In this document: one piece after another, positions 12,413-59,098 of the stretch
How the letters are laid out: every line of letters starts with the position of its first letter
Position numbering within the stretch: position 1 is the stretch's first letter
NCBI GenBank assembly: GCA_965219575.1
Contig: OZ244779.1
Location: forward strand, 64,001-128,000
Direction of reading: 5' to 3'
Source: Candidatus Oxydemutatoraceae bacterium
Lineage (GTDB): Bacteria; Pseudomonadota; Gammaproteobacteria; Poriferisulfidales; Oxydemutatoraceae
DNA: 64,000 nt
Translations under genes and position numbers: made by a program
The notes under the pieces: generated by a model
What the model was told of the DNA's origin: nothing
Databases searched by the model: none
What the model saw: only the letters and a program-made list of their open reading frames with translations

Positions 12413-12682
12413 TTGGAGCGGACCCTCCAGAAAAACCTTGCTTCTAACGCAAATAGCTGTGCCGGGGATAGGTAAAATATCGTTAGGAAAATCCAATTGG
12501 GCATTAGCGGTACTAGAACTGGTGATTCCAATAGTGATTTTTATGGTTTTACACATATCAAAAGAATCACTCAGTGTTAATCGCATAGGCACATTGACGT
12601 TCTCCCAAAATTTAGTACTAATGCTTAAAGTTAGTTTTTCCGATAAACTAGAGAAGTTAAAAACATTACAGGAGAACTTAAC

Positions 12683-12949
12683 ATGAAGAGAAAACGTTTT
12701 AGTGAAGAACAAATCATTAAGGCATTAAAGTCAAATCAAGCCGGCATGAAAGTAATCGATATCTGTCGTGATCTAGGCATCGCCGAACAGACATTTTATC
12801 GCTGGCGCAGCAAGTATAATGGCATGGAAGTGGCAGAAGCTAAACGCCTGCGAGAGCTTGAAGCCGATAATAGCAAGCTCAAGAAGCTATTGGCTGAATC
12901 GGTGATGCAGTGTGAAACACTTAAGGAGGTATTATCAAAAAAGTGGTAA
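12683..12949 (+). CDS. IS3 transposase OrfA
   Basis: MKRKRFSEEQII HTH, TFYRWRSKY. Confidence 0.93.
   Translation: MKRKRFSEEQIIKALKSNQAGMKVIDICRDLGIAEQTFYRWRSKYNGMEVAEAKRLRELEADNSKLKKLLAESVMQCETLKEVLSKKW
12923..12943 (+). promoter_or_regulatory. -1 programmed frameshift signal
   Basis: AAGGAGG (12923-12929) upstream of AAAAAAG (12937-12943) at the OrfA/OrfB overlap; OrfB is in the -1 frame. Confidence 0.8.
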
Positions 12950-13767
12950 AGCCGGCGCAACGCAAGCAGATTGTCAAAGATCTAGTGAGCGCGGGTCGGC
13001 ATAGTGAACGCACTGCGTGTGCCCTTGCCAGTATTAGTCGCACTGCATATCGCTATCAGGGCAACCAAGCCGATAAAGATCGTCAACTGGAAGTTGCGTT
13101 ATTGGAGAAGGCAAAGCAATATCCACATTATGGCTATAAGATGTTGCATGCGCTTTTGAAGAGCGAAGGCCGGGTCGTCAATGTGAAGCGTACCTATAGG
13201 CTTTATAAGAAGCTCAGGCTCGAATTGAGAACCAAGAAGCGCAAGAAGCTGTGTCATCCGCGTGGCGTGCCGAAAACACCGGCAACGGTGAATGAGTGCT
13301 GGTCAATGGACTTTGTGCATGACCAGTTTAGCGACGGCAGATGCTTTCGGGTATTGAACATAGTAGATAACTTCAGCCGTGAATGTGTCGGACAGATTGT
13401 TGATGTTTCGATCACCGGTCAACGCGTAGCAAACTATCTATCCGAATTGATAGAATGGCTCGGTGTGAAGCCGGCACGCATCGTCTGCGACAATGGCACC
13501 GAGTTTAGATGCAAGGCGATGTTTCACTGGAGCCGAGATCAGCAGGTGGAATTGGACTTTATCCAACCCGGCAAACCGACCCAGAATGCCTTTGTAGAAA
13601 GTTTCAACGGCAAGTTCCGAGACGGTTGTCTGAACCAGTTCTGGTTTCGTTCAATAAAAGAGGCGAGAGAGATTATAGAAGCCTGGCGAATAGATTATAA
13701 TGAAGTGCGTCCGCACAGCGCATTGGGTTATCAACCCCCAAGTGTATTTGCGGAGGCTATAGCATGA
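12943..13767 (+). CDS. IS3 transposase OrfB (DDE/rve)
   Basis: WSMDF, CDNGTEF, ESFNGKFRD, RPHSALG. Confidence 0.93.
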   Translation: MVKPAQRKQIVKDLVSAGRHSERTACALASISRTAYRYQGNQADKDRQLEVALLEKAKQYPHYGYKMLHALLKSEGRVVNVKRTYRLYKKLRLELRTKKRKKLCHPRGVPKTPATVNECWSMDFVHDQFSDGRCFRVLNIVDNFSRECVGQIVDVSITGQRVANYLSELIEWLGVKPARIVCDNGTEFRCKAMFHWSRDQQVELDFIQPGKPTQNAFVESFNGKFRDGCLNQFWFRSIKEAREIIEAWRIDYNEVRPHSALGYQPPSVFAEAIA

Positions 13768-14227
13768 AAACTAACTTTGTATATGGTAATAAAAATGGGG
13801 TAACGTCAACATCTTGTTGATCATCGGAATCCATGCAGAGTCGGTAAGAAATACCGGCGGAACTAGAAAAGTCAAGGAAACGACCTAAAGAACAGTTAGT
13901 AAGAGGAGGAGTATAATTGCTCTCATCCGCCAAACTCCCTTCGCTGGGACTAACATCCAAAGACTGAATTTGAGTCACTAACACCTCGCTAACCGTGAGT
14001 TGACGGCTTAACTTGACATTGAAATCTATTATGCGCCCCATAGAGGTTCGAGTGGTTTCTACATCTCCTAGGCCAACAAAAACTTGTGCGGAAGCCACAT
14101 TTGCCGAGCAAACGAGCAGTAAGCACAAACCGGCATGGATTAGATAACGTCGTAAGTATTTCATCACCCCAAATTTTTTCATAGCCCACCATTATATCAG
14201 TACGCCAGAACCCAATTTAATAATGAT

Positions 14228-16411: not shown

Positions 16412-16490
16412 TCTTCGTAGACTCCTATTTATAATGTTTATTTCAATGATTTTAATTAAGGTATCGCATTTTATACCTAATTAGGCATAG

Positions 16491-16517
16491 ATATAAGGGT
16501 AATCTCTAAAAATTCAA
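16491..16517 (-). promoter_or_regulatory. Candidate sigma-32 promoter of groES-groEL
   Basis: Minus strand TTGAA-N13-CCCTTATAT resembles the heat-shock consensus. Confidence 0.5.
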
Positions 16518-53899: not shown

Positions 53900-55037
53900 G
53901 CCGTCTTTTGATTACACGCCCTGCCGCAACTGCGCTTTGCAGGCAGTGCTATGGTTCAATAAAAATGTATTGATGCTGGCTTGCCTGACACTTCTCGCAG
54001 TATGCTCGGCGGCTATCGCCGACAGCGAGATCGGGTCGCCGGCGGTTGAACCGGACGGCGACGGCTCTATGAGCAATGTATACGCACAAGAAAGACCCGA
54101 CTGGTTCGGCATGTCTTTCTTGGATATCGCCGAGGATGTCGAAGAGGCGGCAGCCGAAGACAAACACTACGGACTCTATTTTTATCAGGATGGGTGCCCT
54201 TATTGTGAAAAGTTAATCAACGATAACTTCGGACAATACCGCATTAACGAATATGCAAAAGCGAACTTCAACATCGCGCCGATCAACATTTTCGGTGCCG
54301 TCGAAGTAACCGACCTCGACGGTATTCCGAGACCGGAAAGTGCTTTTTCCGAACACCGAAAAATTCAATTCACACCGACGATGATTTTTTTCTCACCGCT
54401 GGGAGAAGTCTTTCGCATGAACGGCTATTATCCACCGCATAAATTCCTCGCAATGCTGGAATATATAACCGACGAATACTACCTCGAAGACATAACTTTT
54501 ATAGACTTCCTGCAGACCAAAGAAGTCTCTCCGGCATCCGATGAGATGCACTACGCTTCGGAAATGTTGCGCCCTCCGCTCGATATGACCGAAAACACGC
54601 TAGGCGCAAACAAACCCGTCTTGGTTTTGTTCGAACAACCGCGCTGTTTGGCGTGCGACGAATTGCATCTTGATGTCCTGAAACGAGAAGCAAGCAACGA
54701 ACTATATCGACAATTTGAAACGGTAATGATTAATGTCTACGGCAAGGAAACCCTCGTGCCGCCGAACGGCGGTGGCGAAACCAGCGAAAAAGCATGGGCG
54801 CGTGAACTGGGCATCAAATACACACCGTCTTTGGTGTTCTATCAACGGCAAAGCGAAAGCCAACCATTAGCCGAAGTGTTTCGCGTCGAAGGCTATGTGA
54901 AAACCTTTCATGTGCAATCGGCAATGGAATATATACTATCGCAGGCTTATGCAAAACCTCAAGACTTCCAAGAATTCATCAGATTACGCGCCGAGTCAAT
55001 GAGACCCGAAGACGGCTATTTAGACATCATGCACTAG
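53892..55037 (+). CDS. Double thioredoxin-fold protein (SoxW-like)
   Basis: CPYC and CLAC motifs, FTPT/YTPS cis-Pro loops. Confidence 0.78.
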   Translation: MNRPSFDYTPCRNCALQAVLWFNKNVLMLACLTLLAVCSAAIADSEIGSPAVEPDGDGSMSNVYAQERPDWFGMSFLDIAEDVEEAAAEDKHYGLYFYQDGCPYCEKLINDNFGQYRINEYAKANFNIAPINIFGAVEVTDLDGIPRPESAFSEHRKIQFTPTMIFFSPLGEVFRMNGYYPPHKFLAMLEYITDEYYLEDITFIDFLQTKEVSPASDEMHYASEMLRPPLDMTENTLGANKPVLVLFEQPRCLACDELHLDVLKREASNELYRQFETVMINVYGKETLVPPNGGGETSEKAWARELGIKYTPSLVFYQRQSESQPLAEVFRVEGYVKTFHVQSAMEYILSQAYAKPQDFQEFIRLRAESMRPEDGYLDIMH

Positions 55038-55063
55038 AGCCTCCCCCCAATTCACAAAAACCA

Positions 55064-55264
55064 CCGTAGGGGCGGACTTGTATGTCCGCCCTAAAGTGTC
55101 GTTCTGCACAGCCGTAATCGCTTGCGCAGTATGGTTTTGGTTTCCATAAATTAACTGGTGTACGATTTTATTTGTGCGGACGCAACGCGTTACAGTTCTG
55201 CATAACGTTACGCCGATTGAGCCGGTAGGTCAATCGACGGTTCTATTTTTCAACAGCCCCATGT
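55064..55264. repeat. Mosaic repeat colinear with 2234-2434
   Basis: REP + spacer + CCGATTGA hairpin + TTTTCAACAGCCCCATGT. Confidence 0.88.
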
Positions 55265-55540
55265 TTATGATGCCACCGCCAATACAACGCTTGCCAAGAA
55301 TACACCTATAATCGAGGTCATCGCAACGATGCTTCCGATGAATAATGCAACACCCCATTTTGTGATGTCTGCTCTTAGTTCCGATTGGGCTGCTTTTACT
55401 TCTGCTATCTCGGATTTAACTTCAGCCTTAAACTCCGTTATCTCAGACTTAACTTCAGCCTTAAACTCCGCTATTTCAGACTTAAACTCTGTGCGCATGT
55501 TAACTATCATTTCGTATAGTTTTTCGTTGGTTATGTTCAT
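55265..55540 (-). CDS. Small coiled-coil/TM protein (subfamily A), 91 aa
   Basis: Paralogue of 1620; start at MNITNEKL after GGAG. Confidence 0.75.
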   Translation of the reverse strand: MNITNEKLYEMIVNMRTEFKSEIAEFKAEVKSEITEFKAEVKSEIAEVKAAQSELRADITKWGVALFIGSIVAMTSIIGVFLASVVLAVAS

Positions 55541-55731
55541 ATCTTTCTCCATATTGAAATTATAAATAAATACCTCGCTAAAGCAAGGCTTCGCTACGGA
55601 TACTAATAGCACAGCGGCATATTTCCGAGATTCGGCAACCCGACGAACGGTAGCAAATATCAGACAGACGGTGACCTTGGCCCATTTTTAGTGCCACATC
55701 CATAACGAATTTTCATCCTGCCGCCTCAAAT

Positions 55732-55758
55732 TTGACAGCCCCCCCCCCATGCTAAATT
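55732..55758 (+). promoter_or_regulatory. Sigma-70 promoter with C10 tract in the spacer
   Basis: TTGACA-G-C10-ATGC-TAAATT (15-bp spacer, extended -10 TG). Confidence 0.7.
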
Positions 55759-55824
55759 CCCTATTTTTAATTAATAAAACATAAGACTGTTAAAGTTTAT
55801 AGTAATCAACAAAGGAGAAAGGAA

Positions 55825-56871
55825 ATGATGTATTGGGCAATGCGTACTTACAGAAAATCAGAAAAGCATACTTACAAAAAAGCGGCAGAGCTGCGCAAAT
55901 TCCTTGCTAACGAATTATTCTCAAAGGGTCGGCTACGTCAAGGTTGGGGATGGGAACACGATCAGGACCTTCGCAAAATTCGAGAAATGTTGCGTAAGGG
56001 CAAGACGCTCAATGACGGACAGAACAAAGCTAACGGAAATCGATTTATGCTTGATGGCGACCCTTCACAACACATGAACGTCGGTGATATCGTTCTAGTG
56101 CCGAACATGCCGTACGACGGCACCTTCACGCTTTGCCGCATCACTGGCCCCTACGAATATGAAGTCTCAGAGCATGGTGAATTCGGTCATATTCTACCTG
56201 TTGAGGTGCTGACACTAAGTGGTGTTGCAAACAATCACGAACTGGTTGATGCTGGACTTCGCCAAAGCCTGCGATGTCTTCGCCGGAAATGGTGCATATC
56301 TCCTTACTCCGACTGTCTGGAGGCGATAATCCAGAGCAATCTTTCTGCCGAATCCCTTGCACAGGGCGTCACGGCAGCGGAGCGTACCGACAGCCTTGTT
56401 TCTGAACTCATCACCGAACCAATTAACGTTATGGCGAGCGATCTCGCAGATAAGCTCCCCAAATTCCTTCAAGGTGCGGAATGGGAGACTGGCATCCTGT
56501 CCGCGTTGGAACCGTTGTTTCCGGCAACCGTTCGACACACTGGTGGCAGAAGCGAACAAGGCGCGGACTTGGAAGTCGTCATTTCCAACCCTTTTGACGA
56601 TAGTAAAAATTGGATAGTGCCGATTCAGGTCAAAGACCATTGGGGCACTGAAAGAAAGGGTGTTGTCCGCCAACTCGAAGAAGCCTATGATACGCGCTCC
56701 GAGAGAGGCATTGTCATTGCCGTGGTGCTCCTCGTAACCAGAGCAGAATCTTCCCCTGAATTGGAAGCGGAGATGTCTCGGTTAAGCGATGAAAAAGGCG
56801 TACCGTTCATATTCTGTAGCGGTGATGATTTGATGCAGATTCTCGCAAGGGGTTTCTTGAAGCGCATCTAG
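55825..56871 (+). CDS. Putative restriction-like PD-(D/E)xK endonuclease (Mrr-like C-terminal domain)
   Basis: LRQGWG N-terminal domain; EQGADLEV...IQVK catalytic pattern. Confidence 0.7.
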   Translation: MMYWAMRTYRKSEKHTYKKAAELRKFLANELFSKGRLRQGWGWEHDQDLRKIREMLRKGKTLNDGQNKANGNRFMLDGDPSQHMNVGDIVLVPNMPYDGTFTLCRITGPYEYEVSEHGEFGHILPVEVLTLSGVANNHELVDAGLRQSLRCLRRKWCISPYSDCLEAIIQSNLSAESLAQGVTAAERTDSLVSELITEPINVMASDLADKLPKFLQGAEWETGILSALEPLFPATVRHTGGRSEQGADLEVVISNPFDDSKNWIVPIQVKDHWGTERKGVVRQLEEAYDTRSERGIVIAVVLLVTRAESSPELEAEMSRLSDEKGVPFIFCSGDDLMQILARGFLKRI

Positions 56872-56997
56872 GCAACACGCTTATCCTTGGGCTGGTTGTC
56901 CGCAGACCCTTGGAGTTGAGTTTGGGCAAAACGATATTTTTCAGCATTCCCACATGTCTGCACTAGTTAAATTCCCCTCCTATGCACTTGCAAATGG

Positions 56998-57219
56998 TTA
57001 TGATGCCACCGCCAATACGACGCTCGCCAAGAATATACCTATAATTGAGGTCATCGCAACGATGCTTCCGATGAATAATGCAACACCCCATTTTGCGATG
57101 TCTGCTCTCAGTTCCGATTGGGCTGCTTTTATTTCAGCTATCTCGGATTTAACCTCAGCCTTAATCTCTGTGCGCATATTAACTATCATTTCGTATAGTT
57201 TTTCGTTGGTTATGTTCAT
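56998..57219 (-). CDS. Small coiled-coil/TM protein (subfamily A), 73 aa
   Basis: Paralogue of 55265 and 1620. Confidence 0.75.
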   Translation of the reverse strand: MNITNEKLYEMIVNMRTEIKAEVKSEIAEIKAAQSELRADIAKWGVALFIGSIVAMTSIIGIFLASVVLAVAS

Positions 57220-57452
57220 ATCTTTCTCCATATTGAAATTATAAATAAATAGCCTGCTAAAGCAAGGCTTCGCTATAGATACTAATAGCACAAAGGCCTA
57301 TTAACGAGATTCGGCAAACCGACGAACGGTAGCAAATATTAGACAGACGGAGACATTAGCCCATTATTAGTGCCACATCCATAGCGAATTTTCATGCTGT
57401 AGCCTTCGTAAATAGACTAGGGCTTGATACGCCAAAATTATCAACCCAAAAT

Positions 57453-57485
57453 TTGACAGCCCCCCCCCCCCCCCCGTGCTATACT
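57453..57485 (+). promoter_or_regulatory. Sigma-70 promoter with C16 tract in the spacer
   Basis: TTGACA-G-C16-GTGC-TATACT (21-bp spacer, extended -10 TG). Confidence 0.7.
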
Positions 57486-57550
57486 TCCGACTTTTAACTA
57501 ATAAAACACTAATAGTAATTCAAACCATATAAATAAGGAGAGAAAATAAA

Positions 57551-58438
57551 ATGGCGAAAATAAACCTTGCTCATTTGCTAGATATAAACTTGGATCAGTT
57601 GAACCAATACAAATTTCATGCTGCTGTATGGAATGGTTGGAAACATCCTTTGGATGATTTCATAAAAGATGGAAAAATTGCAGGTAGAGGAGACGATTCG
57701 CTTTGGTGGGGGTGGCAAGCCTATCATGAGGAAGGAAAGAAAGATAGGTGGACACGTCAATACATTGTGTCGTTCATGCAATTTTACCCTGAAGGCATAA
57801 AAATGTGGTTATTCGGCGGTATATTTGAGGTGAAGGGGAAAAGAGAGGATGGTTATTATGATGTACATTTAACAGACAAAGGAAAAGAATGGATTGGTCG
57901 CTTAAAAGTTTCTTATCCGGAACCTAAAAGACAAAGATATCCATATTTAGAGAATGTTTATGATGATCTCGAATTTAGTGAGATGCTAAAAGTACGATAT
58001 TCTGGTGCAATCTTCCCTGGCTATGAAAATGTTAGTCTGAAATTTGATGAACTTGAGTTTATCGTCAATGCCAATAAAGAGGACTGGAAAAACACTTTAT
58101 CCTCTGTCAAAGGCATTTACGTTATTTTTGATAAAGAGACTGGCAAAAAATATGTAGGTTCAGCCTACGGAGAGAATGGAATTTGGGGTAGATGGTGTCA
58201 ATATGTGGAGCATCTTCACGGCGGTAACAAAGAACTAAAAAAACTCCTTGAAGGCGATAGCCTGCAGGAAATATTTCAAAAAGAAGATTCTAGAGATTAT
58301 GTAAGAAAAAATTTTAGATTCACGATGATTGAATGGACATCTTACAAAAACAAAACCGACGACTCATACATCATAGGACGAGAGAACTTTTGGAAAGAAG
58401 CACTTCTGAGCCGCGAGTTTGGATATAACGCAAATTGA
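57551..58438 (+). CDS. GIY-YIG nuclease family protein
   Basis: KGIYVI...YVGSAYG...RW..Y, HGGN, REnFWK, GYNAN; AT-rich. Confidence 0.88.
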   Translation: MAKINLAHLLDINLDQLNQYKFHAAVWNGWKHPLDDFIKDGKIAGRGDDSLWWGWQAYHEEGKKDRWTRQYIVSFMQFYPEGIKMWLFGGIFEVKGKREDGYYDVHLTDKGKEWIGRLKVSYPEPKRQRYPYLENVYDDLEFSEMLKVRYSGAIFPGYENVSLKFDELEFIVNANKEDWKNTLSSVKGIYVIFDKETGKKYVGSAYGENGIWGRWCQYVEHLHGGNKELKKLLEGDSLQEIFQKEDSRDYVRKNFRFTMIEWTSYKNKTDDSYIIGRENFWKEALLSREFGYNAN

Positions 58439-58579
58439 TTAAACCAACATACAATTAAAAAGGGACATTTTTAGGCAACCTTCCCAATATTGCACTTTCA
58501 CACTTACTAATCCCTACACATAAAATTAAATAGTAGCGTTTTGTCTCCCGATTTCGTTATTAGCATCGGAGGGTAGTAT

Positions 58580-59098
58580 TTACTGCCCCCTTGTCATTGC
58601 CAAATAAACCTGCGCTAACAGATGCGCATCTGTCAATGCGCCGTGCAGCTTGCGGTGGCTGTTATCAATCCCATAACGGCGGCACAACGCATCTAGTGTT
58701 CTGGGTTGTAAATGTCGTCTTTTAGCCATTTTCAGTGTGTCGGCAACAGTACATCGGGCTTCTGCGATAAACTTTTTGCGGTTCAAAAGTTGCAGTTCGC
58801 TGTCTAAAAAACTTAAATCAAACCGCGCATTGTGTATCAAAATTTGCGCACCTCGTACAAAAGATATAAGTTCATCACAAATGTCTGCGAACAACGGACT
58901 ATCTTTTAGCATCTTCCATGTATAGCCATGGATTTTTGTTGCATCTCTGTCTACTTTGCGTTGGGGATTTATCGTAGTATGGAAACTACGCTCCGTGATA
59001 GTACGGCCTACGATCTCAACACAAGCAACCTCTAAAATCCGATGCCCCTCTTGCGGATCCAATCCGGTGGTCTCGGTATCTAGAGCGATTTGTCTCAT
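58580..59098 (-). CDS. dnaQ: DNA polymerase III epsilon-like DEDDh exonuclease (short form)
   Basis: LDTETTG, HNARFD, LDALC, HGALTD; ends MTRGQ. Confidence 0.88.
   Translation of the reverse strand: MRQIALDTETTGLDPQEGHRILEVACVEIVGRTITERSFHTTINPQRKVDRDATKIHGYTWKMLKDSPLFADICDELISFVRGAQILIHNARFDLSFLDSELQLLNRKKFIAEARCTVADTLKMAKRRHLQPRTLDALCRRYGIDNSHRKLHGALTDAHLLAQVYLAMTRGQ

Follow-up and report, generated by a model that had tools for sequence, protein, structure and literature searches.

Homopolymer switches are textbook features of the surface antigens of pathogens and of methyltransferase genes. In Neisseria meningitidis, slippage in a poly-G tract of the porA promoter alters promoter geometry and expression. 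In Bordetella pertussis, fim2 and fim3 each have about 12-16 C's ahead of the -10, and the length of this run sets the distance to an upstream recognition site, the site of the activator BvgA. To our knowledge, much less is known about the regulation of many single-gene defence systems. For the N. meningitidis opc promoter, PMC3447861 (citing Sarkari 1994) gives low expression with a C11 tract and high expression with C12, and promoter spacing is named as a mode of phase variation in PMC5084427. The latter and the review PMC12707154 also describe phase-variable restriction-modification, in which slipped-strand mispairing at homopolymers switches defence genes. Here we analyzed a stretch of 64,000 nucleotides (nt) from a Candidatus Oxydemutatoraceae bacterium (contig OZ244779.1, positions 64,001 to 128,000; hereafter the window), in which two promoters, each with a pure poly-C tract between its -35 and -10 boxes, precede two predicted defence nuclease genes, gene 1 and gene 2. 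Whether these poly-C spacers form a stochastic and heritable expression dial of the opc/porA kind, now in its low state, for two single-protein nucleases is in our judgment evenly balanced, although this is the best of the readings considered, and the evidence on each side is given below.

Both promoters are on the plus strand and share one layout. Promoter 1 (55732-55758) consists of TTGACA (55732-55737), G (55738), C10 (55739-55748), ATGC (55749-55752), and the -10 box TAAATT (55753-55758), with a spacer of 15 base pairs (bp). Promoter 2 (57453-57485) consists of TTGACA (57453-57458), G (57459), C16 (57460-57475), GTGC (57476-57479), and the -10 box TATACT (57480-57485), with a spacer of 21 bp. 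TG-n, the extended -10 motif, precedes the -10 box in both. Judged from the sequence and from the homologous promoters of relatives, a homopolymer of at least about 8 bases lies between recognisable -35 and -10 elements at both sites. The start codons of gene 1 (55825) and gene 2 (57551) are 66 and 65 nt 3' of the promoter sites respectively, and each follows a plus-strand 5' leader (55759-55824 and 57486-57550) with a GGAG-type ribosome site ahead of the start codon. A simple promoter scan that accepted 16-18 bp spacers only called neither poly-C site and no other promoter between either tract and the start codon that follows it. An earlier, sequence-only reading of this DNA had described both promoters ahead of the nuclease genes with exactly these elements and spacers, had pointed to the extended -10 motifs, and had calculated correctly that C12 would give 17 bp in both. 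It had also placed both spacers off the optimum, as the 15 and 21 bp of the reference bear out.

We then asked how rare such tracts are in the genome. TTGACAG followed by C7 occurred twice in the window and never in 100 shuffles, and in the whole single-contig genome of 2,369,097 bp the C16 and C10 of the two promoters were the two longest C runs. The looser pattern TTGAC-N0-3-C9 likewise occurred twice in the genome. For G/C runs of at least 16, 1 was observed against 0.0003 expected genome-wide; for runs of at least 9, the 9 observed were close to the 7.9 expected, and long G/C runs are thus no general feature of this genome. The mismatch repair genes mutS and mutL are intact. These intact genes and the chance-level number of other G/C runs speak against a general mutator state.

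The length of both tracts varied between public assemblies. The stretch is present in 12 runs from six studies, in every case as contigs, and four of the 12 were examined (X2, X5, X7, and X8), one from each of four studies. The contigs are from Logan, in which minority variants are dropped, and at C16-18 a tract approaches the greatest length that short reads resolve accurately. Tract 1 kept the reference length of C10 in X2 and X5 and was C9 in X7 (depth 55.6) and X8 (depth 8.19). Tract 2, which is C16 in the reference and in X8, was C18 in X2, with two C inserted in the sole contig across the tract (depth 17.2). In X5 it was one base longer than the reference and is probably C17, since the contig measures 2101 nt against 2102 nt for that of X2 from the same first base; the position of the extra base was not listed by the comparison, and the high local depth over tract 2 in this run probably comes from unrelated low-complexity contigs. 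In X7 the contig from the gene 2 side ends in 16+9, that is at least 25, C; this C run is perhaps partly a read artefact, and the left flank of the tract is without cover (no contig on 57214-57387). Outside the tracts, X2 and X5 had no differences from the reference over 1502 nt (55594-57095 in both) and 679 nt, and X7 and X8 differed from it in 2 and 8 other letters. Length polymorphism with constant flanks was therefore found in the contigs of these runs. Length differences between assemblies, two of them otherwise base-identical to the reference, are what a slippage-prone tract predicts. Moreover, tract 2 differed among otherwise base-identical assemblies and was the same in X8, which carries single-nucleotide differences, and this is the signature of a hypermutable site. 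These observations make it likely that the tracts are hypermutable. The identical flanks may mean that one strain was sampled repeatedly.

Compared with the described systems, the locus is closest to opc and porA in having a homopolymer in or beside the -35/-10 spacer, here known from sequence and length polymorphism. It differs from them in its cargo, which is cytoplasmic defence nucleases instead of surface antigens, in the TGn extension of its -10 boxes, and in observed lengths that are all far from the optimum. The fim2/fim3 pair is similar in that paralogous genes each have their own tract of different length, but no activator site was identified here. Phase-variable restriction-modification systems and phasevarions involve a methyltransferase, and their repeats mostly interrupt the reading frame of mod, hsdS, or hsdM; at this locus it is the promoter that carries the tract, and the two nucleases stand alone, with no methyltransferase. 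Promoter-spacer homopolymers and phase-variable restriction-modification are thus already known, and the locus extends a known kind of contingency locus. What is less ordinary is the cargo, the off-optimum lengths, and the presence of the promoter cassette before three unrelated genes. Full-text literature searches, covering listings, abstracts, and the passages cited, returned no report of an Uzume system or a Type IV enzyme controlled by a homopolymer in its promoter.

The two tracts are of single origin. A module of about 540 nt (module 1, 55244-55781) is repeated at 56935-57508 (module 2) with more than 90% identity. From left to right it contains a small minus-strand gene, the leader of that gene, an IS3-end remnant of an insertion sequence (IS), the poly-C promoter, and the first ~25 nt of the downstream leader, so that these ~25 nt of the gene 1 leader are common to module 2. 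The two sites are therefore paralogous copies of one duplicated module, one invention and not two independent ones, and the tracts have since diverged to C10 and C16. The IS remnant is 42 nt longer in module 2 than in module 1. An upstream candidate promoter, TTGATA-17-CAAAAT (57424-57452), from which transcription would start inside tract 2, was rejected because module 1 is without that stretch.

We next compared the promoters with their homologs in related genomes. Matches to the region were found in 5 of the 41 genomes searched, namely the window's own genome (G000) and four other species of its genus (G001-G004). In G004 the homolog of gene 1 is preceded by TTGACA, a 16-bp A/T-rich spacer with a T7 run, and a TGn-type -10. 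In G001 there are three paralogs of gene 2, all behind a -35-like box and a spacer without poly-C: paralog c has a 19-bp pyrimidine-rich spacer and TGn TATAAT, and paralogs a and b have a 20-bp spacer and TATAAT or TACAAT. Among the three, TGn is in copy c only. In G003 the cassette is homologous from the IS remnant via a pure C13 to the leader and ribosome site, with TTGACC, a 21-bp spacer, and TACACT; it precedes the gene of a secreted VWA-domain protein and adjoins a DNA methylase gene. The placement of the -10 box and TGn is supported by these promoters, the assignment being conserved in all five sequences. A -35-like hexamer is upstream in each homologous promoter and is perfect in G000 and G004 only. 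Since the homologous promoters of G004 and G001 are without poly-C, the tract took the place of a normal spacer in some members of the genus.

Three unrelated genes thus follow copies of the cassette: gene 1 and gene 2 in G000, and the VWA protein gene in G003. In all three copies the poly-C is uninterrupted, C13 in G003 included, with flanks only about 74% identical. The ~60 nt 3' of the -10 are also kept up to the ribosome site before different genes, namely the UzuA gene of the window (57486-57550), an UzuA-like paralog of G001, and the VWA gene of G003 (the other two positions being L051 about 1523-1589 and L034 about 16430-16496), which suggests a common translational or regulatory leader. 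It is conceivable, though we think it rather unlikely, that the cassette is a portable promoter of ~200 nt (IS3-end remnant, -35, poly-C, extended -10, and conserved 60-nt leader) that was recombined before unrelated accessory genes. If so, it would give stochastic and heritable expression to any gene that follows it and would be a mobile regulatory module instead of a gene-specific switch.

The cassette was not found outside the genus in two scans. A scan of a genome collection, possibly without the window's own genome, for a word of -35 plus C8 with AAAT flank gave 1 match, at an unrelated Bifidobacterium site. A metagenome scan for TTGACAG-C8...TGCTA gave 24 stretches, and by reading none of the 24 had the module flanks. 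Within the family, TTGAC-N0-3-C9 occurred in 3 of 19 genomes (twice in G000, once in G003, and once in G011), and on this count we rejected the idea that poly-C and a -35 box go together throughout the family. Long C/G runs as such, of at least one 12-mer window, were present in 16 of the 19.

The products of both genes are predicted nucleases of defence type. Gene 1 (55825-56871, plus strand, 348 amino acids (aa)) is an intact open reading frame (ORF) with an N-terminal YTH/EVE-like domain and a C-terminal Mrr-type PD-(D/E)xK nuclease domain. Its Pfam match to Mrr_cat (E 0.04, 14.5 bits) is below the 21-bit cut-off. The protein belongs to a widespread family of ~340 aa: of 3377 candidates, 179 proteins matched at E up to 0.001. 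Some of these homologs are annotated with PF28530 and PF04471 (Mrr_cat). D248, Q268, and K270 were invariant in 42 aligned sequences (the query and 41 of 120 listed homologs), and the protein thus has the Mrr-type D...QxK catalytic core of PD-(D/E)xK enzymes. An AlphaFold model (predicted local distance difference test, pLDDT, 89.2; predicted template modelling score, pTM, 0.70) was compared by Foldseek, and the best solved matches were MspJI (E 5.5e-6) and AspBHI (E 3.7e-5), with a whole-chain template modelling (TM) score of just 0.25. The N-terminal domain resembled YTH/PH1033 folds (target TM 0.50-0.54). Gene 1 appears to share with the MspJI and AspBHI enzymes a two-domain layout, with an N-terminal fold resembling that of modified-base readers and a C-terminal PD-(D/E)xK nuclease, but the former is closer to YTH/EVE-like folds (TM about 0.5 by target) than to SRA. 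No methyltransferase gene was present in the interval by ORF listing. On its modelled fold, gene 1 is a probable modification-dependent (Type IV) restriction enzyme of the MspJI/Mrr type. In the X8 contig, 56771 is joined to 56824, so that 52 nt of gene 1 (56772-56823) are skipped, with 4 nt of microhomology; this out-of-frame deletion would shift the frame of the last ~30 codons.

Gene 2 (57551-58438, plus strand, 295 aa) is likewise an intact ORF and encodes an UzuA-like protein with a C-terminal GIY-YIG domain. Residues 55-295 matched positions 46-278 of the 278-position PADLOC UzuA profile (PDLC03973) with E 5.8e-49, and the Pfam GIY-YIG match scored 23.7 bits against a cut-off of 22.6. 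Gene 2 therefore has both a full-length UzuA profile match and a GIY-YIG domain, the two features by which Uzume is recognised. Uzume is described as a single-gene GIY-YIG defence system in the preprint 10.1101/2024.10.26.620412. Gene 2 shares the profile match and the domain with it, and an anti-phage role here is predicted from these likenesses.

How tract length would act on these genes can be set out from general promoter rules. A spacer of 16-18 bp lets both the -35 and the -10 be used, and an extended -10 can work without a -35. By this rule the observed spacers, 14-15 bp at tract 1 and 21 to at least 30 bp at tract 2, would allow basal, extended -10-driven transcription only. In the proposed dial, one copy of a sigma-70-type promoter cassette, with its perfect -35, pure poly-C spacer, and TGn-extended -10, would drive each nuclease gene. 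Replication slippage would add or remove C's and so change the distance from the -35 to the -10. With a tract of about C11-C13, giving 16-18 bp, the perfect -35 would act together with the extended -10 and transcription would be strong; at the observed lengths (C9-C10, and C16 to at least 25) only the extended -10 would be usable and expression would stay at a low basal level. The dial would accordingly be one of low and high and not strictly of off and on. The anatomy, the paralogy, the gene identities, the promoter homology in relatives, and the length polymorphism were observed directly; that slippage causes the length changes, where transcription starts, and that length would alter expression are what we infer in this model.

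Speaking for the dial are the promoter anatomy, the -10/TGn and -35-like elements kept in relatives, the length polymorphism, the purity of the tract in all three cassette copies, the lack of a general mutator state, and the precedent of opc. For tract 1, just a step or two away from a usable spacer, the dial is a fairly good fit. For tract 2 the fit is poor, with the tract 4 to at least 13 steps off and spacings of 19-21 bp in relatives. Several points weigh against the dial. A spacer of 16-18 bp was found in none of the five tract-1 alleles and none of the five tract-2 alleles (reference and four runs, a small sample). The distance of tract 2 from the optimum is too far for a practical reversible switch and fits a drifting tract better than a two-state one. 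The copy in G003 is also off the optimum, at 21 bp, and a TGn-extended -10 can free a promoter from its -35. With the 19-21 bp spacing of the gene-2-type relatives, the -35-like box may never be used. In addition, the run data are contigs, with C16-18 close to what short reads can count. Much of this also speaks for the main rival, a neutral hypermutable tract whose promoters run on the extended -10 alone and which slips freely without any change in expression. TGn is present in both promoters, relatives have spacings of 19-20 bp (again 21 bp in G003) with poor -35-like boxes, and the observed lengths range widely, from C9 to at least C25, without any that would yield 16-18 bp. We regard this rival as a real but less probable explanation. 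Against it, both copies retain a perfect TTGACA, G004 has TTGACA and G003 TTGACC, and the G004 promoter is canonical with its 16-bp spacer. The purity of the tract in flanks only about 74% identical also argues against neutrality, though slippage dynamics alone could maintain it. The sequence-only reading had proposed an ON/OFF phase-variable switch of potentially toxic nucleases. Its premise that the downstream genes are defence-type nucleases is upheld by Foldseek and the alignment for gene 1 and by PADLOC and Pfam for gene 2, but 'toxic' is doubtful, in that the modification-dependent enzymes that gene 1 resembles leave unmodified host DNA intact. Of the switch itself, the variable tract is supported by the public assemblies, in which the lengths were not invariant (C9-C10 at tract 1, C16 to at least 25 at tract 2); a switch between ON and OFF found less support, given the lack of a 16-18 bp allele, the TGn extension, and the distance of tract 2 from the optimum.

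Three other explanations carry less weight. A one-way silencing, in which a tract change uncoupled the -35 and costly defence genes were shut down and are being lost in this lineage, would agree with every allele being off the optimum, with the out-of-frame 52-nt deletion inside gene 1 in X8, and with the turnover of island content between species. We consider it improbable, since both reading frames are intact in the reference, the catalytic residues of gene 1 are the invariant ones of its family, gene 2 matches UzuA almost end to end, and the extended -10 should still yield basal transcription. The tracts could instead act through DNA structure or a binding protein and not through spacing, for example by a template G run of at least 15 forming a quadruplex, or as an insulator between divergent genes. 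Tract 2 (16 to at least 25) does lie between divergent genes and is, by the known chemistry, alone long enough for such folds. Tract 1 (C9-C10) is too short for them, no supporting feature was found, and the small gene occurs with the same leader and without a tract at three other places in the genome, all of which makes an effect of structure very unlikely. Least credible of all is that the true tracts are fixed in length and that their variation comes from errors in sequencing or assembling a homopolymer. Such errors are common in long homopolymers, the position of the extra base in X5 is not listed, and the C run at the contig end in X7 could be inflated by read artefacts. The difference between C9 and C10, however, is well within short-read accuracy and was seen in single contigs at depths of 55.6 (X7) and 8.19 (X8), the C18 of X2 is in the only contig across the tract at a depth of 17.2, and both the reference and the four assemblies examined carry the tracts.

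If tract length does set expression as the dial would have it, a population would carry cells with different levels of defence. The cost of the nucleases would be spread, and part of the population could take up modified DNA. If length is without effect, the locus would be a warning that a tract in a promoter spacer does not alone make a switch. In either case it offers a clean test case, with two paralogous promoters of different tract length, natural variants, and tract-less relatives.

The remaining parts of the module were also annotated. The small gene (copy 1 at 55265-55552 in the left part of module 1, copy 2 at 56998-57231 in the left part of module 2, both on the minus strand) encodes a small protein with a coiled coil and a C-terminal transmembrane segment, which resembles the CCDC90-like (DUF1640) family of Pfam weakly, at E 1.3e-4 and short of the cut-off. 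It has 5 copies in the genome, three of them with the same leader and without any poly-C tract. The leader of ~120 nt (55553-55672 and 57232-57351, minus strand) ends in a terminator-like hairpin (55589-55572 and 57266-57253) just 5' of the ribosome site, and it is kept at all 5 copies of the genome and at copies in all four congeners. It had no Rfam match. An Rfam search of 54800-58700 with E up to 1 returned two chance-level matches only, so the conserved leaders are explained by no known RNA.

The IS3-family right-end remnants (55673-55727 in module 1, the shorter one, and 57352-57435 in module 2; plus strand) were aligned to the ends of 1215-bp IS copies. The module 2 remnant contains the inverted repeat and the last orfB codons read on the minus strand, and shares 76% identity with about 10 IS copies over a stretch of 85 nt. 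Besides fragments, the genome contains 9 near-full copies of the 1215-bp element, at 97-100% identity to the query copy, and one full copy is inside the window at 12594-13808. The ORFs of full copies matched HTH_Tnp_1 (E 6.4e-23) and rve/rve_3. Assignment to the IS3 family follows from the terminal inverted repeat, from orfA (helix-turn-helix, HTH) and orfB (rve) in full copies, and from the homology of the remnant to one end. Beside module 1, a short repeat of ~26-37 nt (55211-55248) was found at at least about 200 places in the genome.

Across the genus, defence islands of variable make-up occupy the interval from a thioredoxin-like gene to pyrB, a hotspot whose content turns over between species. 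In G001 it holds SIR2-HerA, a Type IIG/ISP enzyme, and the three UzuA-like paralogs; in G004 it holds the gene 1 homolog, a GmrSD-type enzyme, and a dCTP-deaminase-like gene. The G001 island (L034 6775-8559) also has a second dnaQ copy, in two overlapping pieces. An UzuA-like gene follows each dnaQ copy, with the N-terminal 150 residues in common, and from this pairing the duplicated unit in G001 is dnaQ plus promoter and not the small gene plus promoter.

Pure C/G runs of C12 to C48 were common in other genera of the family (G005-G018), for example C28 at L039 1501-1528, C24 at L040 1501-1524, and C48, C21, and C14 in L046; at L042 1501-1517 a C17 comes directly after a start codon. Several complete genomes of the family had about 100 to 700 overlapping 12-mer C/G windows. 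These long runs were mostly without a preceding -35 box, and some were within ORF starts. In the window's genus, one tract (C13-C16) was present in each of 4 of the 5 genomes and none in G002.

A few minor observations concern single sites. X2 showed a joint of 57586 to 57804 with a short side of 21 nt. Outside the window, a G11 run at C1:960367-960377 of G000 is 3 nt 5' of the start codon of a gene whose product is probably secreted, in the position of the ribosome-binding site, and ties with the run at C1:619127 as the longest G run of the genome. A G9 run at C1:1179762-1179770, also outside the window, is apparently within a long repetitive adhesin-like coding region and is a possible candidate for a coding-frame contingency site.

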